Source: a candidate division FCPU426 bacterium (GTDB lineage Bacteria > Oederibacteriota > Muellerivitia > Muellerivitales > Muellerivitaceae). From it: a DNA stretch of 29,006 bases. The notes under the pieces are model-generated. The model saw only the letters and a list, made by a program, of their open reading frames with translations. It did no database searches and was not told where the DNA came from. Within the stretch, counting starts at the first letter, position 1, and each line of letters begins with the position of its first letter. The stretch covers positions 1 through 29,006 of the forward strand of contig CAVTWJ010000017.1 in the NCBI GenBank assembly GCA_963738405.1, given 5' to 3'. The position numbers were made by a program, and so were the translations under genes. Below, one piece after another: positions 1 through 21,396 of this stretch.

Positions 1-3000
1 CGGTTCCATGGGGTTTCAACCGTTCGACCATAATTTGCCCGCCGTATTCTTTCGCGATCCTCTGGCTCAAGGCCAGCCCCAGCCCCGAACCCGCCTTTTT
101 GGTGGTGAAAAAGGGCTCAAAAATCCGAAGCATATCCGCCTCCTGGATTCCGGGGCCCGAGTCTTCCACGCGCACGAGAGCGTATTTTTCATCGCTTTTC
201 ACGCCCAGGGTCAGCGTGCCGCCTTCCGGCATGATTTGATAGGCGTTCATGATCAAGTTCACCAAAATCTGCTGAATGCGCTGGGGATTTGCGGAGAGGG
301 TGATGCCTCCCTTTTGGAGTTCCCATTTTACCTGTACTTTCGCGTGCGCAGGGCCGAATTGGATCTGGCTCAAACGGAGGGAGCTTTCCAATATCGGTTT
401 CAGGGCGAAAGGCTCGTTTTCATCGGTTTTCTCGCTTCGGGCGTACCCAAGCGTGTCCCGAATGAGCTGTTCCAGCCGTTGGGACTGCTCCACGATGGTA
501 TCCACCAAGCTCGTATCCCCCCCCGCTTTTTCCCCCCGTCTTTTGAGGACCTGGGCCGCGGTGGAGATGGCGGCCAGGGGGTTTCGAATTTCGTGGGCCA
601 TACCCGCCGCCATTTCACCAATGACGGAAAGCCGCTCGAATTTTAAAAGGGCCTGCTCGGCCATCCGCTTTTCAGTCACGTCCCGGTAATTGAAGATGAT
701 CCCCTTCACCGTGGGATGATCCAGCAGGTTCATGGCGACGGCCTCAATATGCCGCCAGGTGCCGTTCTTATGAAGGGCCCGGGCCTCGGCGTAGGCGGTG
801 GTACCCGGTTTATCCAGGAAGGCCCGAAAGGTCTGCAAAACCCGGGACTGGTCTTCGGGGTGGACGATCTCCATGAAACTTTTCCCGACCCTTTCCGCCG
901 GTTCGTAGCCCATGACCTTTCGGACCGAGGGGCTGACATAACGGGCCCGGCCGTCATTGCCCACCACCGAAATGACGTCGTTTGAGTTTTCAATCAGGGT
1001 CCGAAAGTTCTCTTCCGATTGGCGAAGGGCCTCCTCGGCCATCTTCTTCTCGGTCACGTCCCTGCTGTTAACAACGATCCCCCCCACCGCCGGGTCGTCC
1101 AGAAGGTTGGTGAGTACCACCTCCGCCCGGATAAAATGCCCGTCCTTGTGCTTAAAAGCCGTTTCGGTCTTATAGGGCACGCCGGGATGGGCCAATACCT
1201 CGGCGAAAAGCTTTCGGTTCTTTTCCAGGTCCTCCGGGTGCTGGAAGTCAAAGGCCGGGCCCACTCTTTCACCGGGCTTGTAACCCATGACGCGCTCCAG
1301 GGAAGGGCTCTCGTAGAGCCGATGGCCCTTGGCGTCGACCACCGTAATCATGTCGTAGGAATTCTCGATCAGGCCCCGGAACTTGGCCTCCGATTGTTTC
1401 AGGGCCCTCTCGGTCTTTATTTTTTCCGTTACGTCGCGGCTGTTGATGACGATGCCGCCTACCGCGGGATCATCCAGCAGATTCGTGACGATCATATCCC
1501 CGTCGATGTAGCTTCCGTTTTTGTGGACCGACTTCATTTGGGCGTGGATCGGCACACCCGGATTCGCCAAAACCTTCTTAAAGATTTCCCCGGCTTGTGC
1601 CCGTTCCTCCGGCGGCTGGGCCTCAAAAGCGAAACCCTCCCTTTCTCCCGGCTTAAAACCCAAAACCCGTTCCAAGGAAGGGCTCTCATAAAGCCTCTTA
1701 CCTTCGCGGTCCAAAACCGTGATGAGGTCGTAAGAATTTTCGATCAAACTGCGGAACTTGGCTTCCGATTGTTTCAGGGCCTCTTCCGCTTTTTTCCGGT
1801 CCGAAATATCCCTAAAGAGCACCATGGTGGATGGAAGCTGGCGGTAACGGATGCCGATGGAGGATGTTTCGACCGGGACCGACGAACTGTCTTTTCTCAG
1901 AAGCTGTATTTCAATGGCGGGGTTTTCACCGCCCTCCAGGGTTTTTTGAATGCGTTTTTGCACCCTTTCCCGGTCTTCGGGATGGATCAGGTCCGTCGGC
2001 GCCAGGACCCACATCTCCTCTTCTTTCCCAAACCGCAGCAACTCCACGCATTTTTTGTTCGCGTAGACGATCTTCCCCCCCTGATGCACCAAAATGGCGT
2101 CGGGAGACTGTTCAATGAGGGTCCTAAAATTTTCCTCCGACTGGCGCAGGGCCTCCTCGGCCTTCTTGCGCTCGGTGATGTCCCAGATGCTGGCGACCCG
2201 GAGGTCCCTTCCCTGGTAGGTAAAATTTTGGCCGATGATTTCCGCGGGGAAGGTGGAGCCGTCCTTGCGCCGGGCCAGAATTTCGTAGGGGTGGGAATAG
2301 TTTTCTTCGGCGTGTCGGCGCACCATTTCCACCGATTCGGGAGCTAAAAAGCTGAATTTCGGCATCTCCATCATTTCGGAGATCGTGTATCCCAACATAG
2401 CCGAAAGGGTGGGGTTGGCGTCCACCAGGACCCCGTGGTCGTGGATCATGATGCCTTCCTTCGTCACCTCGGAGAAACGGCGGAACCTTTCCTCGCTCTC
2501 GCGCACGGCCTGTTCGATCTTTTTCTGGTAGGTAATGTCCCATCCGCTGGAGGCCCGCATCTTCCGCCCCTGGAACATGAAATCCCGGCCATGGACCAGG
2601 ATGGGAACAACGGTCCCGTTCTTGTGTTTGGCGCTGATTTCATAGGTTCCCTCCGGATATCCCCTTTCCATGCGGGTCTGGGTGTCTTCGATGGAAGCCT
2701 GGTCCATGAAATTCGAGAGGTGTTTTCCGACCACTTCAGAGCTGTCATAGCCCAAGAGGCGGGTCAGGGCCTGGTTGACTTCCACGATGACCCCCTGGTC
2801 GTGGATCATGATGGCTTCTTCCGTCAGCTCATCAAACAGCCGAAGCCTTTGACCGCTTTCATAAAGGGCTTGGTCCGCTTTTTTGCGTTCCGAGATGTCC
2901 CGAAGCACCACCGTGTAATAAAGCCGGCCTTCCCGGCTGAATTCGCCGAAGGAGCCTTCCAAGGCGAGGGTCTGCCCTTTCTTGTGAAGGCCCTCAAACT

Positions 3001-3892
3001 CGAACAAAAGGCCCGGCATCCCCTTCTTATGGTTACGTAAGTAAGAGAGGATGGAATCCAAAAAACCCACATGGGATTTTTCGGGGAGGATCATGGTGAG
3101 GGACTGGCCCCGCAATTCGTCGGGGGAATAGCCAAAGATGGATCGGACCGCCTCGTTGGCATAGACCATCTTCCCCTCATCATCCAGGTTCAGGATGGCG
3201 TCGGTAGCCGTTTCCGTCAGCGCCCTGAAACGCTTTTCCTCTTCCAAGAGAGCCATTTCACTTCGAAGGGCCTGGCGAAGATCGGCGGTGATGGAATAGC
3301 CGACCGCCAAGAAACCCAAAGCCAGAAGAATTCCCACCACCACCAAAACCAGATCGGTTTGAATGAGCCGTAAAAAACCGTTCTGTTCCTCAGCTTCCTT
3401 TTGGTCCAGGTAGCCGATGTAGGCCTGGCTGGCGTTGTCGAAATCGATGGTGATGTCTTTAAGGTAGCGGTTGTAAAGTTTTTCGGCGGAGTCGCTCTTT
3501 TGGGCGGTGGAGGCGAGAATTCCTAATGGGAACTGGACATCCCGAAGTCCGGCCCCGAGGCGGAAAAGCAGGCCCTTGCCGTCGGGTTCCTGTTCCAAAA
3601 GCGAAAGCCGGTTGAAATCATCGGCGGCTTCCTGGTAATAGGCCAGGCTCCTTTGTTTATTCTTCTCATCCTTCAGAATGGCGAAATTTTTGGCCTTCGA
3701 AATGGCCAACTGGAAAGCGGAATTGGTCTTTTGGGCCAGTTGGGCCTTCTGGTCAAAAAGCGCGTCCTCCCGCCGGTCCTGCAGGGCCATCCAAAATCCG
3801 ACGAAGGCGGCGATAAACAAAAGGCCGACCAGGCCGCCGAGGATGTAAGTGGCGGTGATTTTGGCTCTAATTTTTTTTGTCAGTTCAAGCAC
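1..3892 (-). CDS. Membrane-bound multi-PAS sensor histidine kinase (2 TM + periplasmic domain, 7 PAS domains, HisKA, HATPase); 3' end runs off the window
   Basis: Hand translation of the minus strand from GTG at 3892 (MLELTKKIRAKITATYILGGLVGLLFIAAFVGFWMAL...) stays open to the left edge. It has a second TM (LVLVVVGILLALGFLAVGY), repeated PAS starts/ends (SEENFRTLIE...RDVTEKK, WDITERK), H-box GMAHEIRNPL near 580-610 and G-box residues with FEPFFTTKKAGSGLGL near 65-125. The plus-strand ORFs in the track are its antisense shadows. Confidence 0.93.
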   Translation of the reverse strand, partial: MLELTKKIRAKITATYILGGLVGLLFIAAFVGFWMALQDRREDALFDQKAQLAQKTNSAFQLAISKAKNFAILKDEKNKQRSLAYYQEAADDFNRLSLLEQEPDGKGLLFRLGAGLRDVQFPLGILASTAQKSDSAEKLYNRYLKDITIDFDNASQAYIGYLDQKEAEEQNGFLRLIQTDLVLVVVGILLALGFLAVGYSITADLRQALRSEMALLEEEKRFRALTETATDAILNLDDEGKMVYANEAVRSIFGYSPDELRGQSLTMILPEKSHVGFLDSILSYLRNHKKGMPGLLFEFEGLHKKGQTLALEGSFGEFSREGRLYYTVVLRDISERKKADQALYESGQRLRLFDELTEEAIMIHDQGVIVEVNQALTRLLGYDSSEVVGKHLSNFMDQASIEDTQTRMERGYPEGTYEISAKHKNGTVVPILVHGRDFMFQGRKMRASSGWDITYQKKIEQAVRESEERFRRFSEVTKEGIMIHDHGVLVDANPTLSAMLGYTISEMMEMPKFSFLAPESVEMVRRHAEENYSHPYEILARRKDGSTFPAEIIGQNFTYQGRDLRVASIWDITERKKAEEALRQSEENFRTLIEQSPDAILVHQGGKIVYANKKCVELLRFGKEEEMWVLAPTDLIHPEDRERVQKRIQKTLEGGENPAIEIQLLRKDSSSVPVETSSIGIRYRQLPSTMVLFRDISDRKKAEEALKQSEAKFRSLIENSYDLITVLDREGKRLYESPSLERVLGFKPGEREGFAFEAQPPEERAQAGEIFKKVLANPGVPIHAQMKSVHKNGSYIDGDMIVTNLLDDPAVGGIVINSRDVTEKIKTERALKQSEAKFRGLIENSYDMITVVDAKGHRLYESPSLERVMGYKPGERVGPAFDFQHPEDLEKNRKLFAEVLAHPGVPYKTETAFKHKDGHFIRAEVVLTNLLDDPAVGGIVVNSRDVTEKKMAEEALRQSEENFRTLIENSNDVISVVGNDGRARYVSPSVRKVMGYEPAERVGKSFMEIVHPEDQSRVLQTFRAFLDKPGTTAYAEARALHKNGTWRHIEAVAMNLLDHPTVKGIIFNYRDVTEKRMAEQALLKFERLSVIGEMAAGMAHEIRNPLAAISTAAQVLKRRGEKAGGDTSLVDTIVEQSQRLEQLIRDTLGYARSEKTDENEPFALKPILESSLRLSQIQFGPAHAKVQVKWELQKGGITLSANPQRIQQILVNLIMNAYQIMPEGGTLTLGVKSDEKYALVRVEDSGPGIQEADMLRIFEPFFTTKKAGSGLGLALSQRIAKEYGGQIMVERLKPHGT

Positions 3893-4980: not shown

Positions 4981-5268
4981 TTCTTCCTCACCTCCTCGAA
5001 CTTCGATTCTTCGTTTATTGTTGAGCCGGCGCCTTCGAAAAGTGAAGCGCCTCCTTCGTCCATTCAGCAAAAAGTCCGGCGGAAAGCTGATGACGTTTTC
5101 CCCGAGCCAATCATTTTCATTGCGGGGTCAAGGCGCATTATTTTTTATAAAAGTTATCCTTTACCCATAGTGGGTCTAGCCTGGGAAAACCTGTACCCAA
5201 TTGACCCAACCTGCTCCCTCTTTACCCACTTCCAAATTTAAAATAGCGCTTTTTCCTCAATTAGTCCT

Positions 5269-5283
5269 TGGCACGCCCCTTGC
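5269..5283 (+). promoter_or_regulatory. Sigma-54 promoter for the PilZ gene
   Basis: TGGCAC-GCCCC-TTGC, exact consensus, about 65 nt upstream of the likely TTG start. Confidence 0.78.
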
Positions 5284-5347
5284 CATAAGAGATATCGAAA
5301 GTAAAAGCCAACAACCATTTCAGTTGTTGTTAAAAGGGAAAAAGAAA

Positions 5348-5704
5348 TTGCCAACTTCAAAAGCCGCAGAGGAAAGACGAAAACAACCCAGGGTTAAATT
5401 CGCGAAACCCGTTCAAATTTATCCGGTCGTGGAATCCCAGTCCGGAAATATTTTCGAGGTTCAAAAGGATTTTTTAACCGTGAAGGCCGTTGATTTAAGC
5501 GAAGGCGGGATCCGTTTGGAGCTGGGGATCCCGAAGCCCCCCGGCCATATCCTGAAGCTCAATTTTGATATACAAAAAGACCGGTCCGTGACGGTCTACG
5601 GAAAGCTGTGCTGGTCCACCGGCAAATTCGCCGGATGCAAGTTCATCGCCCTGGAAAAAGAGACCCTTCAGCAGATTCAAGATTTCGTGGAAAAACAGCT
5701 TTAG
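5348..5704 (+). CDS. Single-domain PilZ (c-di-GMP receptor) protein
   Basis: RxxxR (ERRKQPRV) and DxSxxG (DLSEGG) motifs. TTG start at 5348 follows AAAAGGGAAAAAG. The stop overlaps the mreD stop (5701-5704). Confidence 0.85.
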   Translation: MPTSKAAEERRKQPRVKFAKPVQIYPVVESQSGNIFEVQKDFLTVKAVDLSEGGIRLELGIPKPPGHILKLNFDIQKDRSVTVYGKLCWSTGKFAGCKFIALEKETLQQIQDFVEKQL

Positions 5705-6183
5705 GCGGTCGCGGGATCCTGCCGGCGGGGCCGGAGCCTCACCACCAGCCAGCAGGCCAGAAGCCCCACCAGGCCCGTCAAGGCCGTTGAATGCAGCACG
5801 ACCGTAAAGGCTTCGGCCGCCGGAGGCGCCGTTCCATCCCATTTTAAAAGACCCCAAATCGCCAGCTGGCGGAGTGCCATCATGGCGAAAACGAGGAAGC
5901 TTTGGGTCAGGACCCTTTCCCGAAAAACATGGCGCCGTGAAAGGGAGCTCAAATAACCCGCCAAGGCGTCGGAGGCCAGGTGGAGGCCGATCCAATCGGC
6001 GGTGAAAATATCCTGCGCCGCCCCCAGGAAAAACCCCCAGGCCGTCGCCTTCACGGGTGTGGTTCGAAGGCCCTTGAGCACCACGAAAATCAACGGCAGG
6101 TCCACTCCCCAATCCGCCACGCCCACCAGTTGCTGGAGAAAGAACAACCCCAAAACAATGAGCGTTTCTTGAGCGATTCTCAC
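5701..6183 (-). CDS. mreD: Rod shape-determining protein MreD
   Basis: 160-aa polytopic membrane protein with GFFLGAAQDIF...G motif, immediately downstream of mreC. Confidence 0.85.
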   Translation of the reverse strand: MRIAQETLIVLGLFFLQQLVGVADWGVDLPLIFVVLKGLRTTPVKATAWGFFLGAAQDIFTADWIGLHLASDALAGYLSSLSRRHVFRERVLTQSFLVFAMMALRQLAIWGLLKWDGTAPPAAEAFTVVLHSTALTGLVGLLACWLVVRLRPRRQDPATA

Positions 6184-6185
6184 GG

Positions 6186-7019
6186 TTATTCCTTGAAAAT
6201 TTCAACGGGCGGCAGGATGAAAACGTAATCCAAGACTCCGAGATCCACCGCCGGGGCCAATTCGATTTCGGTGTCCAGATGGTTGTCCGAAACCTCTTTT
6301 TTCACGATGGTTCCCAGGGCGTAGCCTTTCGGGAAGACTCCCCCCAGCCCCGAGGAAACAATCGTATCCCCCACCTGGATGTCCTCCAGCGGGCTCACGA
6401 AGCCCAGGCGCAGGGGGCCCAAGCCCGTTCCCTGCACCACCCCGTTGACCCGGGACCTGACATCCACCCCCGACACGGAAGAATCGGTGTCGGAAATCAT
6501 GAGCACACGGGAATATTTGGCCGTGCATTCCAACACGCGCCCCACGATTCCCTGCTCGGCGATGACGGGCGAGTCCGCCACCACGCCGTCGTCGCGCCCC
6601 AAGTCGATGATGAAACTCTTGCTCCAGGTGCTGGGATCATGCGCGATGATGCGGGCGATCTTGGCCTGATGGGGAAGCTTCGACTTGATCTGGAGGACCT
6701 CTTTGAGCCGCGCCAGCTCGTCCTGAAGCGATTTATGGTTGGAAAGCTCAAGACGAAGGGCCTGATTTTCGAGCTGGAGCCGGCTGACTTCCTGGCGCAG
6801 GTGGCCCAGCTCCTGGAGGGCGGTGAGGATGTTTTCCGGCAGCGCCAGAAGGGCCCCGATGGAGTTTTGAACCGGAAGCCAGAGATTCAAGGAAGTGTTC
6901 TTGAGGCTCCAATGGCGGGCGTTGGGGTGGTTGTGCCGGTAGGCGAGGACCCACAGGCAGATGAAAACCAAGAGAAAGAGCATCAGGAGGGAAAAATTTC
7001 GCTTTAGAAATTTCAGCAT
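6186..7019 (-). CDS. mreC: Rod shape-determining protein MreC
   Basis: N-terminal TM, coiled coil, IIDLGRDDGV, GIVGRV and VGDTIVSSGLGGVFPKG motifs. Confidence 0.95.
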   Translation of the reverse strand: MLKFLKRNFSLLMLFLLVFICLWVLAYRHNHPNARHWSLKNTSLNLWLPVQNSIGALLALPENILTALQELGHLRQEVSRLQLENQALRLELSNHKSLQDELARLKEVLQIKSKLPHQAKIARIIAHDPSTWSKSFIIDLGRDDGVVADSPVIAEQGIVGRVLECTAKYSRVLMISDTDSSVSGVDVRSRVNGVVQGTGLGPLRLGFVSPLEDIQVGDTIVSSGLGGVFPKGYALGTIVKKEVSDNHLDTEIELAPAVDLGVLDYVFILPPVEIFKE

Positions 7020-7088
7020 GTCTTGGCAGCCGAGAAAAGGTTGGGATGTGGTTTCATCGGATCGGCGCCCTTCTCCGGAAGATCCGGA

Positions 7089-8129
<1,041 letters not shown>

Positions 8130-8182
8130 GAAAAGCCCTCCAACCTCAGTTTGCTGGGGCCCTCCAAAGGGCCTGGTCATTC

Positions 8183-8624: not shown

Positions 8625-9173
8625 TTAGAGACTGGTTTTTAAAAAAAAGTCACACAACCAAATTCCGGCATGGGCGCTGATAGTTCCTAAGGCGAGGCCC
8701 GCTAAAACATCCCCGGGGTAATGGACCCCCAGATAAACTCGGGAAATGCCGATCAAAACCGCCCAGGCGAAAACCCAAGGCCCGAGGGCGGGCAGAGCGG
8801 CTGTCAAAACCACTGCCAGCAGAAAGGCCGCGCCAGTGTGGCCCGAGGGAAAGCTGAACTCGTCCGGTGGAACGATGAGGGCACGGACACCCTTGAGGCG
8901 GTTGAAGGGCCGGGGCCTGCGCACGTTTTTTTTGATGAGGTAGTAAAGCGAAAGTTCCAACAAAAAAGCGGAAAGACCGGCCAAAACGTAAGGCCATTGG
9001 GCCGGCTTCATCCAAAGCCAGATGATTCCAATGCCCACACAAGGCAGTACATCCGCCGTATGGGAGAGATAATAAAAAAACCTTTTCAAAGGCTTTCCCT
9101 GGGCCTCACCAAAGATCAAATTAAAGATCCAGGCATCCCAGCTGTTGGCTTTTCGAAGAATAAATTGAACCAT
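8625..9173 (-). CDS. PAP2-family membrane phosphatase (undecaprenyl-PP/lipid phosphatase type)
   Basis: C1 KKNVRRPRP, C2 SFPSGH and C3 SRVYLGVHYPGD motifs, with several TM segments. Confidence 0.93.
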   Translation of the reverse strand: MVQFILRKANSWDAWIFNLIFGEAQGKPLKRFFYYLSHTADVLPCVGIGIIWLWMKPAQWPYVLAGLSAFLLELSLYYLIKKNVRRPRPFNRLKGVRALIVPPDEFSFPSGHTGAAFLLAVVLTAALPALGPWVFAWAVLIGISRVYLGVHYPGDVLAGLALGTISAHAGIWLCDFFLKTSL

Positions 9174-9231
9174 AAGGCCTAAACCTTCCTTGGTAAGTTG
9201 GCTAAAGGTTAGGCTTTATGTATTTCAGGCC

Positions 9232-9248
9232 TGTAAATAACCTATAAA
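9232..9248 (-). promoter_or_regulatory. Putative Pho-box-like tandem repeat in the PAP2/ppx divergent intergenic region
   Basis: Minus strand TTTATA-GGTTA-TTTACA, 11-bp period. Confidence 0.45.
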
Positions 9249-9365
9249 CAGGCCGAAACTTCTCTCGAAACAGCAACGGAATACACACAAAAAAGCTTAA
9301 AAACCATATAATGTGCCTCTTTTCCGCCCTATCTCGGATTCGAAATGTTGGTTTAAAGGGGTTCC

Positions 9366-10877
9366 ATGCCAAATCTTTGTTCCATTGACGTGGGTTCCAA
9401 CGCCATGAGGCTGGCCATCGGCTTCCTGGACCATAACAAACAGCTTCATTTGGTCGAGGACATGCGTGAGCCCGTGCGCCTGGGCCAGGACGTCTTCAAG
9501 CAGGGCGTCATATCCAAAGAAACCACCCAAAAAGCCGTGGAAGCCTTTCTGCGTTTTAAAGAGCTGATTCACCAGCACCAGGTCGTCATTACCCGCGCGG
9601 TCGCTACCAGTGCCGTTCGTGAAGCCCATAACCGGGACGAATTTATCGCCCATATTCAGGAGGCCACCGGCATCGAGCTTCGGCCCATCACCGGCGAGGA
9701 AGAAGCCCTTCTGGTTTATTTGGCCGTGGCTAAAAAGATACCGTTGGAAAACAAGACCGCCATGCTGATCGACATCGGCGGGGGAAGCGTGGAACTGACC
9801 CTGGCCCGCGAAGCCAAGATTCTCGCCACCGACAGTTTCAAGATGGGGGCGGTCCGCCTTCTTCAGGTTTTAGAGCAAAAGAAGGTTGGCGAAAAGCGTT
9901 TTAACCAAATGGTTCAGGAATACGTCGAATCCGCCAGCAAAAGATTTAATCAAAAACTGGCCGGCCAGCGCATCAACATCTGCGTCGGAACCGGCGGCAA
10001 CCTGGATACCCTGTTGTCCCTCAAGAGCCAAATCCTGCACAAGGCAGGCTCCCTCTTCGTAACCCTGCCGGAGCTTAAGACCATCCTGCACCGGATCCGT
10101 TCCTTGACCTATGAAGACCGGGTGACCCGCCTGGGGTTGCGCCCCGACCGCGCGGACGTCATTTTGCCCGCCGCCACCGTTCTCCAAAAAGTGATGGAAG
10201 TCGGAAAGATCAACCGGATTTATATCCCCAACGTGGGCGTGAAGGAAGGCCTGCTCATTGAGATGGTAACGGAACTATTAACTGGGAAACGCCCCCTCCA
10301 TCGGCAGGAAGTGGTGGGAGCCCTGAAACAAGTGGGCCTCAAATACGGCTACGACGAGGCTCACGCTTCCACCGTGACCAAGCTCGCCCTAGACCTCTTC
10401 GATCACACGAAGGCCCTTCATAAGCTGGGGGATGACCAGCGCCTGCTGTTGGAAGTGGCGGCCCAGCTCCACGACATCGGCCAATTCGTCAACTATGGGG
10501 CCCACCATAAGCATTCCTATTACCTGATCAAGGCCACCCAGCTGGTGGGCCTGCACCACGACCAGGTGGAAATTATCGCCAACGTGGCGCGGTACCACCG
10601 CAAGGCCATGCCGAAGATGGAGCACGAAAATTACCGCGCCCTTTCCCCCGCCCAAAGGCAGGTGGTGAACAAATTGGCGGGTATTTTGCGGGTGGCCGAC
10701 GCCATGGACCATGAACATTCGTCAAAAGTAACAGGGTTCAACCTGACCCAAAAGAGGGGCCACTTTGCCGTCAAGCTGAAGGGCCAGGGGGATATGCTTT
10801 TGGAGCGCTGGGCGCTTTTGAAAAAATGCGACTTGTTTGAAAAGACCTTTAAGGTCCGCTTTGCCGTAGCCCGCTAG
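9366..10877 (+). CDS. ppx: Ppx/GppA exopolyphosphatase with C-terminal HD domain
   Basis: DVGSNAMRL, ATSAVREA, GEEEA, DIGGGSVE, RADVI, GVKEG and HDIG...HHKHS motifs. TATAAT at 9307-9312. Confidence 0.95.
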   Translation: MPNLCSIDVGSNAMRLAIGFLDHNKQLHLVEDMREPVRLGQDVFKQGVISKETTQKAVEAFLRFKELIHQHQVVITRAVATSAVREAHNRDEFIAHIQEATGIELRPITGEEEALLVYLAVAKKIPLENKTAMLIDIGGGSVELTLAREAKILATDSFKMGAVRLLQVLEQKKVGEKRFNQMVQEYVESASKRFNQKLAGQRINICVGTGGNLDTLLSLKSQILHKAGSLFVTLPELKTILHRIRSLTYEDRVTRLGLRPDRADVILPAATVLQKVMEVGKINRIYIPNVGVKEGLLIEMVTELLTGKRPLHRQEVVGALKQVGLKYGYDEAHASTVTKLALDLFDHTKALHKLGDDQRLLLEVAAQLHDIGQFVNYGAHHKHSYYLIKATQLVGLHHDQVEIIANVARYHRKAMPKMEHENYRALSPAQRQVVNKLAGILRVADAMDHEHSSKVTGFNLTQKRGHFAVKLKGQGDMLLERWALLKKCDLFEKTFKVRFAVAR

Positions 10878-10912
10878 GGCCGGGCGGAAAAGATTCGGGA
10901 GGAGCCAGGACA

Positions 10913-11608
10913 ATGGTGACCAATACAACGAGTGAAATAAAAGGCCGGCTGATCGCGGTGGAGGGCCTGGACGGGTCCGGCAAGTCCACCCAGATACGCC
11001 TGCTCAAGCGGTGGCTGGAGTTGGAAGGCTATAAGGTCTTTTTCACCGAATGGAACTCTTCGGACCTGGTCAAGAAGGCCACCCGCAAGGGCAAAAAAAA
11101 GAAACTCCTGACCCCCACCACCTTTTCCCTGATCCACTGCACGGATTTCGCCGACCGGTACGAACGGCAGATCCTTCCCCTTTTGCAGGGGGGCTATCTG
11201 GTTTTGGCGGACCGCTACGTCTACACCGCCTACGCGCGCGACGCGGTGCGCGGCTGTGACCGGGATTGGCTGAGGAAACTTTACCGTTTCGCCCGAAAAC
11301 CCGATATTACCTTTTTTTTCGAGGTGCCCCTGGACGTAGCCCTGGGCCGAATCCTCGAGGGCCGTCCCATGCTGAAGTACCACGAGGCCGGCATGGATAT
11401 GGGATTTTCAAAGGACCCTTACGAATCTTTTAAAATCTTTCAGGGGAAAATTTACGAGGAATACGGCCGCATCGGCAAGGAATACCCCTTTGAAAGGGTG
11501 GACGCCACCCTGCCGTCGGAGGAACAACAGGCCTTGATGAGGGATCTGGTTCGGCGCCGGATCGATTTGAAGGATTACAAAATCAAGGGACGGGAGGCCA
11601 AGTCATGA
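10913..11608 (+). CDS. Thymidylate-kinase-like P-loop kinase, copy A (non-canonical)
   Basis: Walker A EGLDGSGKST and DRY motif. TEWNSS replaces the usual REPG, and there is a Lys-rich insert KKATRKGKKKK. Confidence 0.88.
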   Translation: MVTNTTSEIKGRLIAVEGLDGSGKSTQIRLLKRWLELEGYKVFFTEWNSSDLVKKATRKGKKKKLLTPTTFSLIHCTDFADRYERQILPLLQGGYLVLADRYVYTAYARDAVRGCDRDWLRKLYRFARKPDITFFFEVPLDVALGRILEGRPMLKYHEAGMDMGFSKDPYESFKIFQGKIYEEYGRIGKEYPFERVDATLPSEEQQALMRDLVRRRIDLKDYKIKGREAKS

Positions 11609-12405
11609 AATCCAAACGCTTTTTCGGCAAAGGACTTCCCGGGGTTGACCCGGCGCTTTTAAACGGAACTTTAATTATTATCGAAGGGTCAGATGGATCG
11701 GGCCGTTCGACCCAGATCGGCTACCTTACCAACTGGCTGGAGCGAAAGGGCTTCCCCTCTGTTCAAGTGGGCCTCAAGCGCAGCGAGCTGGTGGGAGAGG
11801 CCTTGGCGGAGGCGATGAAAGGCAATACCCTCAACGCCATCACCCTCAATTTATTCTATGCCACCGACTTCGCCGATCAGCTGGAGAGGGTGATTATCCC
11901 GTCACTGAAAGCGGGATTCGTGGTTTTGGCGGACCGTTATATTTATACCCTGATGGCACGGGACATCGTTCGGGGTTCTTCGATGGACTGGCTGAAGGAA
12001 ATTTACGGTTTCGCTTTGGAGCCGGACGCGGTTTTCTACCTGAACGTCTCGCCCAAAGTGCTGGCGGAACGCCATTTCAGCAAGAGCGGGATGTTGGATT
12101 ATTGGGAATCGGGTATGGACGTCCAGCGCGCGGGCGGGATGTACGACAACTTCATCAAATATCAGACCCGAATCCACAAGGTGTTTGAAAGCCTGCAAAA
12201 GGAATTCAAATTCACCACGATCCAGGGGAACCGCAGACCGGCCTCCATCGCCAAAGAAATCAGGGATAAGGTGGAACGCATCCTGGCGGAACGGTCCAAC
12301 CGTTTCAAGGACCTCCAAAAGCCCCGCCTCAGCGCGACCGAATCGGCCGACGCGGCCGCGCGGGCCCTTTTGGCGCCCGGCGAAAACCCGGCGGATCAAA
12401 ACTAG
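11605..12405 (+). CDS. Thymidylate-kinase-like P-loop protein, copy B (Walker A Lys replaced by Arg)
   Basis: EGSDGSGRST, ATDFADQLE and LADRYIYTLMARD are paralogous to copy A. ATGA overlap with copy A. Confidence 0.88.
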   Translation: MKSKRFFGKGLPGVDPALLNGTLIIIEGSDGSGRSTQIGYLTNWLERKGFPSVQVGLKRSELVGEALAEAMKGNTLNAITLNLFYATDFADQLERVIIPSLKAGFVVLADRYIYTLMARDIVRGSSMDWLKEIYGFALEPDAVFYLNVSPKVLAERHFSKSGMLDYWESGMDVQRAGGMYDNFIKYQTRIHKVFESLQKEFKFTTIQGNRRPASIAKEIRDKVERILAERSNRFKDLQKPRLSATESADAAARALLAPGENPADQN

Positions 12406-12414
12406 CCGTTTTTT

Positions 12415-13926
12415 CTAATGAAGCACCTGGCAGTGGAGTCCGCCCGCGCCCCAGGCGAAGTCCGAAACCGGAATCACATCGATCCCGGCTCGATTGAAGA
12501 TCGAGACCCATTGATCGAAAAGCGGGTTCGATTCCTTGTCCGTTTGATCCATTTCTTTCCAAACTTCCGCAATAGAATCCAGTACATCCTTAAACCGGCC
12601 TTCACTTGGTTGTTTCTGCCATTCCCCCGCCTTTAACTGGAGTGCCCCCAGCTTTTCTTTCAATACTTCCTGGGCGGGCGTTGCGTTTGGATCTTCCGTT
12701 GTTTGAACCGGGTATTTCGACAAAAGCACCTCACACTTCCCCTTTTCGGGGTCGTAAAACCGCACCATATTGGCCGGACTGCGGACCGGATGGTCCCCGA
12801 AGGGAAGCCGGTTCACCTTGAATCCCAAGGTTTCCAATTCGGAAGCGATCAGGTCCATTTCTCCCTGCAGGCTTTTGACAAAATCCCCATCAAGGGGCTG
12901 ACCTGTCACCCGGTCTATAGGATTGGACTGATAAGTCGGCACAAAGGCTTGAGCTTCCCGCGCCATCCCAACAACCGCCGTGGACATATCCAAGTGAAAG
13001 AGCTCATCATTTCCCAGGCTGGGTTTAAGCAGGGCTCCGGAGGGTAATAGGCAAACCGGAAGACCGTCAAAAGCCTTTGAAAACTCATCTTGATCCTGGA
13101 GAAGCTGTTCCTGGCTTAGCGCGGGAGCCGTCGAGGGCGTCAGAGAGTTGTTCATCAACTTCAGGGCCCGGTGTCTTCCCAAAAGGAGCACTTGGTTACC
13201 GCTCGGGGTTCTTACGAGGTCCTCATCCCCGCCCTCGGCACTCACCCCTGCCGGAAGGTCCCGGTAGGCAAACTGGTCCGGATAAGCCGCGCATAAATCC
13301 GCCACCGCTTGATGGTAGAGGGGCAGGTCCTGGGGGCCCCGATAGATGATCCAACGGCCCTTCCCATCCCTCCCGATGATCTTTCCGATATCCTGAGCCC
13401 AAATCAAAGGCGTGGGGCTTTTAAAAAAATGGACCCGATTCTTAATTTGATCCAATGACCAACCGCATCGTGAAGCGAGGTAATCCAAAAAATATCTTTC
13501 CTCGTTTCCGGATGCTCCCTTCACCCTTCTGGGGTCCGGAAGGGCCACGTAAAGTTTAGTTTGGGGCGGAAAGGCATTGATCACACGACCATGGCAGAGC
13601 TCAAAATTAAGCCAATAAAGTTGTTCATGGACCTTCTGATAATCGACGGCCGGCAAAGTAGGACCTGGCGTAATGCTCGGAAGGAGGTAAAAAGATGGGT
13701 TGTCGGAATCAATTCCGATGACCACAAAATCCAAGGGCCTTTCAGTTTCAGGAATGGTCATCAAACCATCCTGGTTATGAAACACTTCAGCCGAGAGGGG
13801 AGCGATACCTCTAGAAGTCACTCGGGGCAGAATGAAGTAAAAGGCCGCGACAAAAATGATGAGAAACGCCCCCAAGAGAAAGGGCAAGGGGTTTCTTGAA
13901 TTTCGTAGGGCGTCGGTTTCTGTCAC
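12415..13926 (-). CDS. Membrane-anchored pentein-superfamily enzyme (agmatine/peptidyl-arginine deiminase-like)
   Basis: N-terminal TM (LPFLLGAFLIIFVAAFYFIL), then WAQD, EGGD, FHLD and C-terminal GGLHC in the order of the Asp/His/Asp/Cys catalytic residues. Confidence 0.78.
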   Translation of the reverse strand: MTETDALRNSRNPLPFLLGAFLIIFVAAFYFILPRVTSRGIAPLSAEVFHNQDGLMTIPETERPLDFVVIGIDSDNPSFYLLPSITPGPTLPAVDYQKVHEQLYWLNFELCHGRVINAFPPQTKLYVALPDPRRVKGASGNEERYFLDYLASRCGWSLDQIKNRVHFFKSPTPLIWAQDIGKIIGRDGKGRWIIYRGPQDLPLYHQAVADLCAAYPDQFAYRDLPAGVSAEGGDEDLVRTPSGNQVLLLGRHRALKLMNNSLTPSTAPALSQEQLLQDQDEFSKAFDGLPVCLLPSGALLKPSLGNDELFHLDMSTAVVGMAREAQAFVPTYQSNPIDRVTGQPLDGDFVKSLQGEMDLIASELETLGFKVNRLPFGDHPVRSPANMVRFYDPEKGKCEVLLSKYPVQTTEDPNATPAQEVLKEKLGALQLKAGEWQKQPSEGRFKDVLDSIAEVWKEMDQTDKESNPLFDQWVSIFNRAGIDVIPVSDFAWGAGGLHCQVLH

Positions 13927-14216: not shown

Positions 14217-15515
14217 TTACTCTTCTTGAGCGCGCAAGACAATCGTAAAGGCGCTTCCCTTTCCTTCCGCGCTTTTCAAAAGCACTTCCCCGCCCATTTT
14301 TTCAGCCAAATGTTTCACGATCGAAAGCCCCAGACCCGTGCCTCCGGCCTCCCGGCTTCGGGAGCTATCCACCCTGAAAAACCTCTCAAAAACCCTGGTT
14401 TGCGCCTCGGGCGGAATACCCGGTCCTTGGTCCGCGACCGTGATTTCCTCCAATCCATCCCCGCGCCGATTGGAAAAAATACGTATTTCCGTTTTAGCGG
14501 GAGAGTATTTAATCGCGTTATCCAGCAGATTCTCGAAAACATGAAAGAGCCCTTCGCGGTGAGCGGTCACCATTTCACCCGTTGGAATCTCCTGGGTAAT
14601 CTTCATTTCCTTGGCTTCCCACTTGGCCTTTAAAAGATCCACCACCTGCTGGGCCACCTCGGCGGGTTTAACGGGTTCCAACCCGGTGATGTAAAGACCG
14701 CTCTCGATCTTGGAAAGTTCCAATACGTCGGTAATGAGGGCATTGAGCCGGTTCGCCTGGTCGGAAATTTTCTTGAGAAATTGCCCCCGGTTCTTGCGGT
14801 CATCCAACGCCCCGGTCAAGAGAGTCTCCACATAACCCAAAATGGCCGTCAAAGGCGTGCGGAGTTCGTGTGAAACATTGGCCACAAACTCGGTTCTCAT
14901 ACGCATCAATCGCCGGAGGGAGGTAATATCGGAAAAAACAACAATTTGACCCAAAGGATAGCCTTCCTCCACGCGGATGGCTCCCACGCTCACCGCGAAA
15001 TATTTTTCGTCCCTGCCCCCAAATTCAATTTCTCCCCCGGCGCGGCCTTCCCTTTTCGATTCCGCCAGAAGATCAGCCAAAACGGGATGCCGCACCACCT
15101 CCAGGTAATGCCGGCCCAAATGATTTTCTTCCAGGGTTTCCAGTATTTTTTCGGCGGAGGGGTTCATGAGAATGATCCGGTCGGCCTGATTGAGAAGCAG
15201 GACGCCCTCTCCCATGCTGTTAAGGATCACGTTCAGCATCGACTCGTTGGACCCTAAACGCTGGATCATCTCCTCGAAATTCCGCCCGGGAATGGATCCG
15301 CGCTTTATTTCAGATGGGGCTTCCGGAAGTTTGGCGGCGGGGGGCTCGTCAGGAACCGGGTTTAGGAAAAGGCGGACCAATCCAAAACCCATCAAGATAC
15401 CCAGGACCATGAAAAAGGCGGATTTCCACAACATGGCCTTCATCAAGGCGAGAATCACCACAGCTATCAGAAGGAGAAATAGGAAAAGCCAAAAAGAACG
15501 GGTAGCGGATTTCAT
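14217..15515 (-). CDS. phoR: PhoR-type sensor histidine kinase
   Basis: Two N-terminal TMs, PAS (LNSMGEGVLLL), MRTEFVANVSHELRTPLT, NLLDNAIKY, RVFERFFRVDSSRSREAGGTGLGLSIVKH. Confidence 0.9.
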   Translation of the reverse strand: MKSATRSFWLFLFLLLIAVVILALMKAMLWKSAFFMVLGILMGFGLVRLFLNPVPDEPPAAKLPEAPSEIKRGSIPGRNFEEMIQRLGSNESMLNVILNSMGEGVLLLNQADRIILMNPSAEKILETLEENHLGRHYLEVVRHPVLADLLAESKREGRAGGEIEFGGRDEKYFAVSVGAIRVEEGYPLGQIVVFSDITSLRRLMRMRTEFVANVSHELRTPLTAILGYVETLLTGALDDRKNRGQFLKKISDQANRLNALITDVLELSKIESGLYITGLEPVKPAEVAQQVVDLLKAKWEAKEMKITQEIPTGEMVTAHREGLFHVFENLLDNAIKYSPAKTEIRIFSNRRGDGLEEITVADQGPGIPPEAQTRVFERFFRVDSSRSREAGGTGLGLSIVKHLAEKMGGEVLLKSAEGKGSAFTIVLRAQEE

Positions 15516-15582: not shown

Positions 15583-15598
15583 AATCGGTCAACCGATT
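15583..15598. repeat. Palindrome AATCGGT-CA-ACCGATT at the phoB stop, with an inverted near-copy at 16321-16337
   Basis: Perfect 7-bp arms. Its reverse complement shares 13 consecutive nt (AATCGGTTGACCG) with 16321-16333. Confidence 0.7.
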
Positions 15599-16281
15599 TA
15601 AACTTCCTCTTTGAATAAATATCCATAACCCTTGACCGTCTGGATATGCTTGTCATAGGTTCCCAGTTTTTCCCGAAGACGCCTCACATGCACATCCACC
15701 GTCCGGGTCGTTCCGAAGTAATCGTAACCCCAAACATTATTCAATAGAACGTCCCGGGAGAGAACACGGCCCGTGTGGGTGAGAAAATAATCCAGAAGCT
15801 CGAATTCCTTGGCGGTTAGATCCAGCTTATGGGATTTCAGGACCACCTCATGCTTGGCCCTATTAAAGACGAGGTCCTTGAACTTCTGGACCGATTCCCC
15901 CTCCTGCGCTTTACTGAAACGCCTTAGGACCGCCCTAACCCTGGCCAACAGCTCCTTAACGGAAAAAGGCTTGGTCATATAATCGTCCGCGCCCAATTCA
16001 AGACCCACGATCTTGTCCGATTCTTCTCCCTTGGCGGTCAGCATGACGACCGGAATATGCGCGGTCTTCGGATTGGATTTGAGGGTCTTACAAACGGTCA
16101 ACCCGTCGGTTTTCGGAAGCATAAGATCCAGCAGGACCAAGTCCGGCATTTTTTCAGGAATTTTTTTGAGGGCTGTCTCGCCGTCCATTTCGGACAAAAC
16201 CCGGTAACCGTCTTTTTCTAAGTTGTAGGTTAATAACTCAACCAGGTCCTTCTCGTCTTCAACAATAAATATTTGTTTCAT
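15598..16281 (-). CDS. phoB: PhoB/PhoP-type OmpR-family response regulator
   Basis: VEDE, LLDLMLP, MLTAKGEESDKIVGLELGADDYMTKPFS and TRTVDVHVRRLREKL motifs. Adjacent to phoR and phosphate genes. Confidence 0.9.
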   Translation of the reverse strand: MKQIFIVEDEKDLVELLTYNLEKDGYRVLSEMDGETALKKIPEKMPDLVLLDLMLPKTDGLTVCKTLKSNPKTAHIPVVMLTAKGEESDKIVGLELGADDYMTKPFSVKELLARVRAVLRRFSKAQEGESVQKFKDLVFNRAKHEVVLKSHKLDLTAKEFELLDYFLTHTGRVLSRDVLLNNVWGYDYFGTTRTVDVHVRRLREKLGTYDKHIQTVKGYGYLFKEEV

Positions 16282-17019: not shown

Positions 17020-17733
17020 ATGCCAAAAGCCGACCTACACCTACACACCGACTTCTCCGATGGGCTCCACAGCCCCCGCCAGGTTGTCCAATCTGCCTCT
17101 AAAGCCGGTCTCCCCATCATCGCTGTTACCGATCACGACACCATGGAAGGCGCCCTTCGCGCTCATGAATATTCTCTTCGACGGCCCGATTTGGGTGTTC
17201 AGGTCATCATCGGAGAAGAAGTCAGCTCTCTCAACGGCCACGTTCTTGGCTACTTTCTGACAAAGTTCGTTCCTCCCCGGTTGACCGCCAAAAGAACAGT
17301 GGAGTTGATCCATCAGCAGGGCGGTTTGGCGGTTTTGGCTCACCCCTTTCATCTCTACACCGGGCGGGATTCCAAGCACCCCCCCGCAATCGAATTAATT
17401 CGCGAAATTCCATTCGATGGGGTGGAAACCGTAAACCACGGGGATGCCCTTTCTTTCTGGAGCAACCGCAAAGCCCTCAAGTCTCTGGAAAAGATGGATT
17501 TTGCCCATATCGGATCAAGCGACGCCCACAATAGCCGTTTTATCGGCATGGGTTACACGGAATTCCAGGGTTCCACTCCCGAAGATCTGCGACAAGCCAT
17601 CCTCCAGCGCCGCACCAAGGCCTGTTATCAAAGGCGCTGGGGTTTCAAAGACATTTGGCTGCACCTCAGGGATGCTTCCTCGGTGCTGAGCCGTTACTCG
17701 AAAAAAATGGCCAGTATCAACAACCTTTACTGA
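17020..17733 (+). CDS. PHP-domain metal-dependent phosphoesterase
   Basis: DLHLHTDFSDG, AVTDHD, GEEVS, GH, AHP and GSSDAH motifs. Confidence 0.93.
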   Translation: MPKADLHLHTDFSDGLHSPRQVVQSASKAGLPIIAVTDHDTMEGALRAHEYSLRRPDLGVQVIIGEEVSSLNGHVLGYFLTKFVPPRLTAKRTVELIHQQGGLAVLAHPFHLYTGRDSKHPPAIELIREIPFDGVETVNHGDALSFWSNRKALKSLEKMDFAHIGSSDAHNSRFIGMGYTEFQGSTPEDLRQAILQRRTKACYQRRWGFKDIWLHLRDASSVLSRYSKKMASINNLY

Positions 17734-20685: not shown

Positions 20686-21396
20686 TCAATAAAATTTACG
20701 TTTTTCATCCCAAAGCGCCAAGCCGCCTAAGATTCCAGCGTCGTTGGAAACGATTTTGACGTTTTTAGGAAGCTTGAAGCGGATATCCTTCGAATTACCC
20801 CCGCCCAAATAGAGCCGGTCATAATTGATAAGAGTTTCAAGAAAAAACAGAGCCTTTTGTAGTCGCTTATTCCATTTCTTATGTCCCTTTTTCTTCAAAA
20901 CCTTGTCGCCGATATATTGATTATAGGTTTTATCCTTCACGACCGGATGTTGGGCCAGTTCCAGGTGGGCCATGAGTTCCCCGTCCCGGTACAAGGCCGT
21001 TCCAACGCCGGTTCCAAGGGTTACCACCATTTCCAGACCCTTGCCCGAAATAACAGCAAGTCCCTGCATATCGGCGTCGTTCAAGATGCGTGTGGGTTTT
21101 CCCCATTCTTTTTCCAGGGCCTTGGCCAGGGGAAACCGAAACCAAGTTTGGTTATCAAGGTTGGGCGCGGTTAGGACCACGCCGTCGCGAACCACGCCGG
21201 GGAATCCCACCGAAACCCTGTCAAAGGAAGGAAGGTTTTTAACCAGTTTGGAAAGACTTTTAATGAGAAGAGGGGGAGGACAGGGGTGTGGGGTTTCAAC
21301 CCGAAGTCTTTCAACCAACATTTTTCCTGCGGGGTCCAAAACGGAAGCTTTAAGCCCGGTGCCTCCGACATCAATCGAAAGGGTGTTCAATCCCAT
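20686..21396 (-). CDS. ppgK: ROK-family polyphosphate glucokinase (cyanobacterial-like)
   Basis: SIDVGGTGLKA, VSVGFPGVV, LNDADMQG, TLGTGVGTAL, ELAQHP, KKWNKRL and LYLGGGN motifs. No ROK Cys-rich zinc motif. Confidence 0.8.
   Translation of the reverse strand: MGLNTLSIDVGGTGLKASVLDPAGKMLVERLRVETPHPCPPPLLIKSLSKLVKNLPSFDRVSVGFPGVVRDGVVLTAPNLDNQTWFRFPLAKALEKEWGKPTRILNDADMQGLAVISGKGLEMVVTLGTGVGTALYRDGELMAHLELAQHPVVKDKTYNQYIGDKVLKKKGHKKWNKRLQKALFFLETLINYDRLYLGGGNSKDIRFKLPKNVKIVSNDAGILGGLALWDEKRKFY

Follow-up and report, generated by a model that had tools for sequence, protein, structure and literature searches.

Downstream of an exopolyphosphatase gene (ppx) in the genome of a candidate division FCPU426 bacterium lie two paralogous genes, here called A and B, whose products have the fold of thymidylate kinase (TMK). 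The locus raises the question of whether these products are kinases of deoxythymidine monophosphate (dTMP) or belong, with the ppx product, to the metabolism of polyphosphate (polyP). The genes were examined in a stretch of 29,006 nucleotides (nt), referred to as the window, which corresponds to positions 1 to 29,006 of the forward strand of contig CAVTWJ010000017.1 (GenBank assembly GCA_963738405.1). Very probably, ppx, A and B form a polyP-turnover operon in which A and B together make up a bacterial family-3 polyphosphate kinase (PPK3, EC 2.7.4.1 type).

Gene organisation of the putative operon

The first gene of the putative operon, ppx (9366..10877, + strand), encodes an exopolyphosphatase of the Ppx/GppA family of 503 amino acids (aa). 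In Pfam, the product matched PF02541 (7.7e-51) and PF21447 (3.3e-28). Its top match in NCBIfam was the exopolyphosphatase-only model TIGR03706 exo_poly_only, with 230.2 bits (the cut-off of 307 was not reached), while the GppA model gave 152.3 bits; the protein is under the equivalog cut-offs of both models.

Gene A (10913..11608, + strand, 231 aa), the cPPK3-like gene for the predicted catalytic subunit, starts 35 nt after the ppx stop codon, and this gap contains a ribosome-binding site, GGGAGGAG, 8 nt 5' of the ATG of A. Gene B (11605..12405, + strand, 266 aa) is rPPK3-like and encodes a probably non-catalytic, regulatory subunit. Its ATG shares an ATGA overlap with the TGA stop codon of A, and is preceded by GGGAGG. 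Both products matched the Pfam family PF02223 Thymidylate_kin (A, 1e-22; B, 6.3e-20), and they are 39% identical to each other over 220 residues (E 5e-50). The preliminary description of the window had reported the same arrangement, in which an exopolyphosphatase gene precedes, by 35 nt, a pair of paralogous genes of the TMK fold that share an ATGA overlap. Prediction of promoters and terminators in the region 8900..12700 returned 2 promoter-like and 5 terminator-like sequences, which is close to the means for shuffled sequence (2.1 and 6.7, respectively) and therefore provides no signal.

Relationship to the archaeal PPK3

Among the PDB sequences, the same set of entries was at the top for A and for B, namely 2plr/4nzy/4rzx/5h70, the 'probable thymidylate kinase' STK_15430 of Sulfolobus tokodaii. 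The E-values for 2plr/5h70 were 1.9e-65 with A and 2.2e-45 with B, compared with 1.7e-16 and 5.7e-12, respectively, for the best canonical TMK. The identity of STK_15430 to A is roughly 55-60%, as estimated from the alignment. In Hofmann et al. (J Biol Chem 2026; PMC12995831; 2024 preprint, bioRxiv 10.1101/2024.08.28.610084), STK_15430 (5h70) is named as the homologue of cPPK3. Because the scores of A and B to this named homologue are far better than those to canonical TMKs, and with the gap between the scores taken as the measure of grouping, both proteins are most likely members of the PPK3 family, that is, TMK-fold proteins which group with STK_15430 and apart from the canonical dTMP kinases.

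The biochemistry of this family comes from S. acidocaldarius. According to that report, the heteromeric enzyme SaPPK3 is the product of two 'thymidylate kinase' genes, which follow ppx (saci_2018) directly (PMC12995831). Saci_2019 is the catalytic subunit, cPPK3, which makes polyP from ATP and has by itself approximately one tenth of the activity of the holoenzyme. Saci_2020 is the regulatory subunit, rPPK3, which is inactive and stimulates Saci_2019, with a maximum at a 1:1 ratio, and the complex is an alpha2beta2 assembly. The reaction is reversible and about 50-fold faster toward ATP from ADP and polyP; GDP is accepted with reduced activity and GTP is not used as a donor. Deoxythymidine diphosphate (dTDP) was made by the canonical enzyme Saci_0893 only, and by neither Saci_2019 nor Saci_2020. 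The same text states that the dTMP-binding residues are not conserved in PPK3s and that a positively charged polyP cleft is conserved in cPPK3 and not in rPPK3; the inactivity of rPPK3 is attributed, in the text and in the legend of Fig. S14, to loss of the DRX arginine. The PPK3 clade is described there as mainly bacterial paralogues of dTMP kinase, the bacterial members being predicted, with PPX, SixA, CHAD, NUDIX and Pst genes in the neighbourhoods (PMC12995831).

The window shares with S. acidocaldarius the gene order ppx, c, r, the replacement of the dTMP-binding positions, the retention of a basic surface in the c-type (catalytic) protein only and a degenerate r-type (regulatory) protein. 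The host here differs in being an uncultured bacterium, and the operon of the window in having a PhoR/PhoB-like pair nearby. With canonical dTMP kinases (PF02223/TIGR00041), the two proteins have in common the fold and the Pfam family, and A in addition has the P-loop, the DRY motif and the lid arginine. However, the similarity to these enzymes is 1e-16 or worse, the REP motif is changed, B lacks the Walker-A lysine and the homologues that make up SaPPK3 are reported to lack dTMP kinase activity (PMC12995831).

Likeness to the PPK2 family was also considered. PPK2 enzymes are P-loop kinases that phosphorylate nucleotides with polyP and have a basic polyP cleft, and in the two-domain class II PPK2 the active domain is coupled to an inactive, N-terminal one; the published text nevertheless describes the ADP and polyP sites as swapped in PPK3 (PMC12995831). 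Neither A nor B matched the PPK2 domain PF03976 at E up to 0.01, whereas the two-domain PPK2 of one of the related loci described below (L046) scored 3.8e-147. The name 'PPK3' was reportedly also used in 2009 for an enzyme of nucleotide-sugar synthesis from Ruegeria pomeroyi which belongs to the PPK2 family; this is a clash of names and not a relative of A and B.

Distribution and pairing of the two genes

Related loci were collected from genomes of 185,579 species representatives. At least 592 stretches matched and at least 555 of these were confirmed, and the best 80, with 64-93% identity to A, were kept for comparison (L001 to L080). All 80 were from metagenome-assembled genomes, 76 bacterial and 4 archaeal. 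By NCBI phylum, these best 80 loci were from Verrucomicrobiota (21), unassigned bacteria (18), Thermodesulfobacteriota (8), Acidobacteriota (7), Bdellovibrionota (5), Bacteroidota and Myxococcota (3 each), Pseudomonadota, Planctomycetota, Sumerlaeota, Bathyarchaeota and Methanobacteriota (2 each), and Ignavibacteriota, Chloroflexota, Latescibacterota and Deferrimicrobiota (1 each), with one locus having no lineage.

The spread of PPK3 in metagenome-assembled genomes is wider than the 'few bacteria' of which the archaeal report, based on 47,545 GenBank genomes, speaks in its abstract (PMC12995831). Data S1 of that report was compared over 31,788 rows, its caption speaking of 47,545 GenBank genomes. 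In these rows, all ten Chloracidobacterium entries are given as PPK1 0, PPK2 0 and PPK3 1, and Phycisphaerae RAS2 as PPK2 2 and PPK3 1 (PMC12995831).

Protein-level searches returned large numbers of homologues. An E-value of 1e-10 or lower was obtained for all 8000 scored candidates with A and for 7977 of 8000 with B. The best 120 protein matches of A were 70-100% identical to it, and many of them are named 'dTMP kinase'. In a HMMER search of 1.84 billion cluster representatives, 381 clusters matched at E <= 1e-30, a number that rose to 2147 when the threshold was set at 1e-10 and to 10,917 when it was set at 1e-3. No match to A was detected by tblastn in plasmid or phage collections (E up to 1e-20).

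An A-type gene followed by an adjacent B-type gene on the same strand was present in 79 of the 80 loci, the exception (L010) lying at a contig edge, and because it recurs in this way the arrangement in the window is more than chance. Gene starts were called heuristically; with these calls the two genes overlapped by 4 nt in 30 of the 79 loci, and overlapped or were no more than 30 nt apart in 63. The alignments and the tree excluded L010, which has no B-type gene, and five further loci whose genes were fused, truncated or aberrant. In a FastTree phylogeny of the 75 A-type and 75 B-type sequences, c and r were separated at a single branch with a local support of 100, and A of the window was placed among the c-type and B among the r-type sequences, each beside its counterpart from L001. 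This split on one branch indicates that the duplication predates the spread across the sampled phyla.

Residue pattern of the two predicted subunits

The translations of A and B bear out the motifs that had been listed in the preliminary description. The REPG motif of dTMP kinases is absent, with TEWN in its place in A and VGLK in B. The pattern DRY(V/I)YTxxARD reads DRYVYTAYARD in A and DRYIYTLMARD in B, TDFAD is found in both, and A has an intact P-loop (Walker A), GLDGSGKST, at residues 18-26 (10964..10990, + strand). The claim of a basic insert in A held in part. The stretch KKATRKGKKKK is present at residues 54-64 (11072..11104, + strand) and is, from its conservation, a candidate part of the polyP-binding cleft, but it is not a true insertion: it aligns with 2plr without a gap, is merely 2 residues longer than its counterpart in T. 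thermophilus TMK, and is a family-wide feature in its normal place.

In the alignment with T. thermophilus TMK, the dTMP-contacting positions of the canonical enzyme are changed in A: REPG corresponds to TEWN of A, and the F and R of LLFSADR correspond to H75 and F79 of A. Among the A-type sequences, E46-W47, H75 and F79 are invariant, and they replace the REP motif and the other canonical positions.

The Walker-A lysine (K24 in A) was found in 79 of the 80 A-type open reading frames (ORFs), the remaining one having a gap at this position. B has a degenerate Walker A, GSDGSGRST, at residues 28-36 (11686..11712, + strand), in which the lysine is changed to arginine. Arginine occupies this position in 77 of the 79 B-type ORFs (the other 2 being gaps) and in 75/75 of those in the alignment. 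In contrast to the lysine, the DRY motif (DRX/Walker B) is conserved on both sides: it was present in 80/80 A-type and 77/79 B-type ORFs and is invariant in the 75 aligned B-type sequences, including B itself (D110-R111-Y112; 11932..11940, + strand). In all 75 A-type sequences of the alignment, K24, D100-R101-Y102 and the lid residues R146, R151 and K155 are invariant. The B-type ORFs have Asp at the position of K155 in 77 of 79 cases, and a Lys or Arg at the position of R151 in just 13 of 79.

Basic residues are distributed very differently between the two types. At eleven positions (R33, K41, K54, K59, K62, R82, R85, R151, K155, K174 and K223 of A), a basic residue occurs in 80% or more of the A-type sequences but in no more than 20% of the B-type, and B itself lacks these basic residues. 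Within the basic stretch, every A-type sequence has a basic residue at the positions of K54 and K59, compared with 0-14% of the B-type; for K62 the figures are 94% and 11%, and K61 is invariant in the A-type. The net charge of A is +11, and the median is +7 for A-type and +0.5 for B-type sequences. At the level of sequence, this agrees with the published polyP cleft of cPPK3 that rPPK3 lacks (PMC12995831), onto which the conserved basic residues of A would map. The B-type sequences are themselves well conserved (mean column identity 53%, 36 columns invariant), which argues for a selected function tied to A.

Gene neighbourhoods of related loci

A Ppx homologue was found in 45 of the 80 loci; it lay directly upstream of the pair in 26, upstream at a greater distance or in an irregular arrangement in 3, and on the downstream side in 16. 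To count neighbours more generally, the 653 ORFs within 5 kilobases (kb) of the pair were clustered and the representatives scanned against Pfam. Clusters lacking a Pfam match which overlapped Ppx on the opposite strand (e.g. L028:12628-14253) were treated as artefacts of ORF calling. By this count, Ppx was present in 39 loci and CHAD in 24, in some of these with a SixA-type histidine phosphatase (His_Phos_1). A small unannotated ORF was counted in 15 loci, MnmG in 10, a PhoB-type regulator and a PstB-like ATPase in 8 each, a PhoR-like kinase in 7, a PstS-like protein, an ABC permease and ROK in 4 each, and PhoU and PPK2 in 3 each. The preliminary description had suggested that the neighbourhoods of homologues be inspected for polyP genes, and Ppx, CHAD, PhoU, Pst and PhoBR do recur in them. 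It had also proposed an anti-correlation with ppk2, which proved not to be strict, as is detailed below.

Homologues of the PhoR-like kinase of the window were detected in 11 of the 80 loci and of its PhoB-like regulator in 9. L001-L004, the loci most closely related to the window, preserve the order PAP2 / ppx-c-r / PhoR-PhoB / PHP, and in L002-L004 the PhoR gene comes directly after the r-type gene.

Two further genes were observed beside the pair in other loci. PPK2 genes, including two-domain forms, occur at L046 (7035-8507, + strand), with homologues in L040, L027, L022, L032, L028, L021, L078 and L080, mostly Geobacter-like. A small basic ORF of about 105-160 aa with the conserved motif LKPxKGRxKDLxxID is located directly after the r-type gene in, for example, L027 (11347-11739, + strand), L061 (11383-11700, + strand) and L013 (11426-11884, + strand), and is absent from the window. 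It was found in 15 of the 80 loci by ORF clustering and in 37 by profile search of six-frame translations. It had no match in Pfam or NCBIfam, and in the Atlas its clusters are named 'hypothetical protein' only. In many PPK3 operons, this ORF may represent a third component.

Natural fusions

Eighty-seven homologues were longer than 405 aa, and comprised 48 c-r fusions, 16 Ppx-c fusions, 19 proteins with a single c domain and other parts, 3 c-c proteins and 1 c-r-r protein. The Ppx-c fusions are about 788 aa long and some are named Phycisphaerales. A Pfam scan of 26 long cluster representatives revealed c-r followed by Ppx domain III/HD, NUDIX-c, and SPX with c (P0325 and P0469). Other architectures were MFS + c + APH/DUF2252 fusions of about 1100-1270 aa (P0285, P0309, P0324, P0350, P0352, P0460, P0461, P0463 and P0467), and polyvalent proteins as long as 2575 aa in which a c domain accompanies InPase (inorganic pyrophosphatase) and ART-PolyVal (ADP-ribosyltransferase) domains (P0306, P0337 and P0375). 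Judged by their domain composition, the fusions independently connect the c domain with its r partner, with Ppx and with phosphate sensing. A eukaryotic origin of the long MFS and SPX fusions was considered and dropped, since the MFS fusion P0463 is named Elusimicrobia.

In five c-r fusions (P0241, P0426, P0417, P0420 and P0422), two of which have Alicyclobacillus names (P0426 is that of Alicyclobacillus tolerans), the P-loop of the r domain reads GSDYSGH.. or GSDYSHH.. and DRY is kept. As this P-loop has neither Lys nor Arg at the position in question, the r-type has lost the Walker-A lysine in more than one way.

Proposed function and alternative explanations

By analogy with SaPPK3, A would bind ATP or ADP at the P-loop site of the TMK fold, while a Lys/Arg-rich surface in place of the dTMP pocket would hold the polyP chain, and the terminal phosphate would pass in either direction between polyP and ADP/ATP. 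In the paralogue B, the Walker-A lysine, two basic residues of the lid and the basic surface have been lost, and B would probably not transfer phosphate; it is likely to associate with A at an equal ratio and to raise the activity of A, as in the archaeal alpha2beta2 enzyme. Ppx would degrade the polymer to phosphate. If the bacterial enzyme behaves as SaPPK3 does, ATP would be formed from polyP at a low ATP/ADP ratio, and polyP would be built only at a high ratio. It is from the archaeal enzyme that we infer the activity, the reaction direction, the stoichiometry and what B does. The proposed A-B heteromer is supported by homology, by translational coupling and by the natural c-r fusions. The preliminary description had proposed a heteromeric polyP kinase which works with Ppx, and this idea is supported by, and matches, the published text on SaPPK3 (PMC12995831). 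The idea was in essence already published for the family, of which the locus is most likely a new, uncharacterised bacterial member.

Several observations weigh against this explanation. The activity of A and B is extrapolated from a single archaeal enzyme, and a literature search found no assay of a bacterial PPK3 of the A/B type. A scored 86.0 bits with the dTMP-kinase equivalog model TIGR00041 of NCBIfam, just over the cut-off of 83.25. The loss of the DRX arginine, which is the published reason for the inactivity of the r subunit, does not apply to B: where the text and figure legend of the archaeal report place the change of the Sulfolobales rPPK3s in DRX, B keeps this arginine, in DRY, as well as the lid residue R156, and has the Walker-A Lys to Arg change instead. 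Nucleotide binding by B, or some remaining activity, may therefore be expected. The operon of the window was found to have no CHAD or SixA gene, unlike the archaeal one. Ppx was not found in 35 of the 80 loci, many of which have full 10-kb flanks. In 9 of the 80 loci, BLAST with the L046 protein as query detected a PPK2 homologue no more than 10 kb away from the pair, so that PPK3 need not be the sole polyP kinase and the two families are not mutually exclusive. Finally, as the loci compared are the best 80 of at least 555, with 64-93% identity to A, the counts describe close relatives only.

Three other explanations were weighed against the one preferred here. That A and B are two dTMP kinases (EC 2.7.4.9), perhaps from a duplicated housekeeping gene, is what the database names would indicate, given the PF02223 matches of both, the TIGR00041 score of A, the name 'dTMP kinase' of homologues and the title 'probable thymidylate kinase' of 2plr. 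However, the S. acidocaldarius homologues made no dTDP, while the separate canonical Saci_0893 did (PMC12995831), the REP motif and other canonical positions are replaced by different residues that are invariant, and B has no Walker-A lysine and stays under the equivalog cut-off with 76.8 bits. Two dTMP kinases would also offer no rationale for the linkage to ppx, CHAD and pst or for the Ppx fusions. This explanation is extremely improbable; in the preliminary description, too, A and B were not taken for two dTMP kinases. Scarcely more credible is that the trio acts on nucleotides or alarmones, with a GppA-type phosphatase of guanosine pentaphosphate (pppGpp) and with A and B as kinases that recycle guanine nucleotides. 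The first gene does belong to the joint Ppx/GppA family, under both equivalog cut-offs, and SaPPK3 is reported to take GDP with reduced activity (PMC12995831). Yet its product scored 230 bits with the exopolyphosphatase-only model against 152 with GppA, the recurrent neighbours are CHAD, PstS, PstB, PhoU and PhoBR, the c domain is fused to SPX and Ppx domains, and GTP is no donor for SaPPK3 in the published text (PMC12995831). The preliminary description had left room for alarmone recycling, for which no support was obtained.

It is also unlikely, although less so, that A is the whole enzyme and B a degenerate paralogue which forms no functional complex with it or has an activity or substrate of its own. 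Saci_2019 by itself retains about one tenth of the holoenzyme activity in the published text (PMC12995831), and B, with DRY, R156 and a complete glycine-rich loop, is less degenerate than the archaeal subunit is described to be. On the other hand, a B-type gene is beside the A-type gene in 79 of 80 loci, with overlap or near-overlap being common, 48 natural c-r fusions exist, the B-type is well conserved, and Arg takes the place of Lys in every B-type sequence that has a residue there.

Within the PPK3 explanation, a bolder proposal is that the second subunit of bacterial PPK3 is a nucleotide-binding sensor rather than a dead scaffold, and that PPK3, with the adjacent PhoR/PhoB-like pair, is a main, phosphate-regulated polyP enzyme of many uncultured bacterial lineages; we regard this as a speculative idea that is rather doubtful at present. 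Because the glycine-rich loop, DRY and one lid arginine are kept and an invariant Arg is present, r-type proteins could bind ATP or ADP without transfer, and set the direction of exchange by energy charge. The Arg in place of the Walker-A Lys spans the 14 or more named phyla sampled. If the sensor proposal were true, PPK3 would have a much wider role than the 'few bacteria' in the abstract of the archaeal report (PMC12995831), with at least 555 confirmed matches in the 185,579 genomes.

The window itself is an ordinary member of a published family, and its relevance lies in what it indicates for that family. Thousands of database proteins like A and B which are named 'dTMP kinase' most likely belong to a third family of polyphosphate kinases, and their annotation could be corrected. 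PPK3 has been assayed in one archaeon only, and the best 80 loci here place the ppx-linked pair in at least 12 named phyla of bacteria and 2 of archaea; from this spread, the polyP metabolism of many uncultured bacteria may run through PPK3. The predicted regulatory subunit of bacteria has degenerated differently from that of the archaeon, and so also offers a simple mutational handle on how an inactive partner works.

Other genes of the window

The genes around the operon include PAP2 (8625..9173, - strand) and PHP (17020..17733, + strand), a PhoR-like histidine kinase (14217..15515, - strand), a PhoB-like response regulator (15598..16281, - strand) and a ROK protein (20686..21396, - strand). 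The kinase has the Pfam domains PAS, HisKA and HATPase_c, and scored 342 bits with the NCBIfam model PnpS (cut-off 400) and 295 with phoR_proteo (cut-off 334). The regulator has Response_reg and Trans_reg_C, and scored 270.9 bits with the PhoB model TIGR02154 (cut-off 296.2). For the ROK protein, the top NCBIfam match was polyphosphate-glucose phosphotransferase, with 120.7 bits against a cut-off of 250. The neighbours that had been named in the preliminary description as phoBR, PAP2, PHP and ppgK are accordingly all present, but PhoR, PhoB and PpgK are best matches under the curated cut-offs. Among the scanned ORFs of the 29-kb window, no ppk1, ppk2, CHAD or second tmk gene was found, and no RNA genes were detected in the whole window by Rfam at gathering thresholds or by a tRNA scan.

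From its adjacency, the PhoR/PhoB-like pair possibly regulates the ppx-A-B operon. Between PAP2 and ppx there is a Pho-box-like direct repeat, CTGTAAA / CTATAAA, 11 nt apart (9231..9248, + strand), and a -10-like TATAAT at 9307..9312. Alignment with L001, L004 and L005 showed partial conservation of the first half-site, TGTAAA, and of the TATAAT only, and a Pho box upstream of ppx was considered too weak to claim.

An ORF of 503 aa (12415..13926, - strand) is convergent with B, the two stop codons being 9 nt apart. It had no match in Pfam, NCBIfam or the PDB sequences; the Atlas gave a weak lead, a cluster of the agmatine deiminase family (score 0.89; PF04371 in 47% of members). Its C-terminal ...GGLHCQVLH resembles the catalytic Cys motif of guanidino-modifying enzymes. 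A homologue, with 67% identity, is present in L001 only among the 80 loci.

The genes mreB, mreC and mreD are located at 5701..8180 (- strand). A number of signalling genes cluster around the operon: a histidine kinase (2..3892, - strand) which is longer than 1296 aa, has several matches to PAS domains and runs off the end of the window, a PilZ-domain protein (5201..5704, + strand), and two divergent genes for EAL-domain proteins, of the type of phosphodiesterases of cyclic diguanylate (c-di-GMP), at 23902..25176 (- strand) and 25564..26823 (+ strand).

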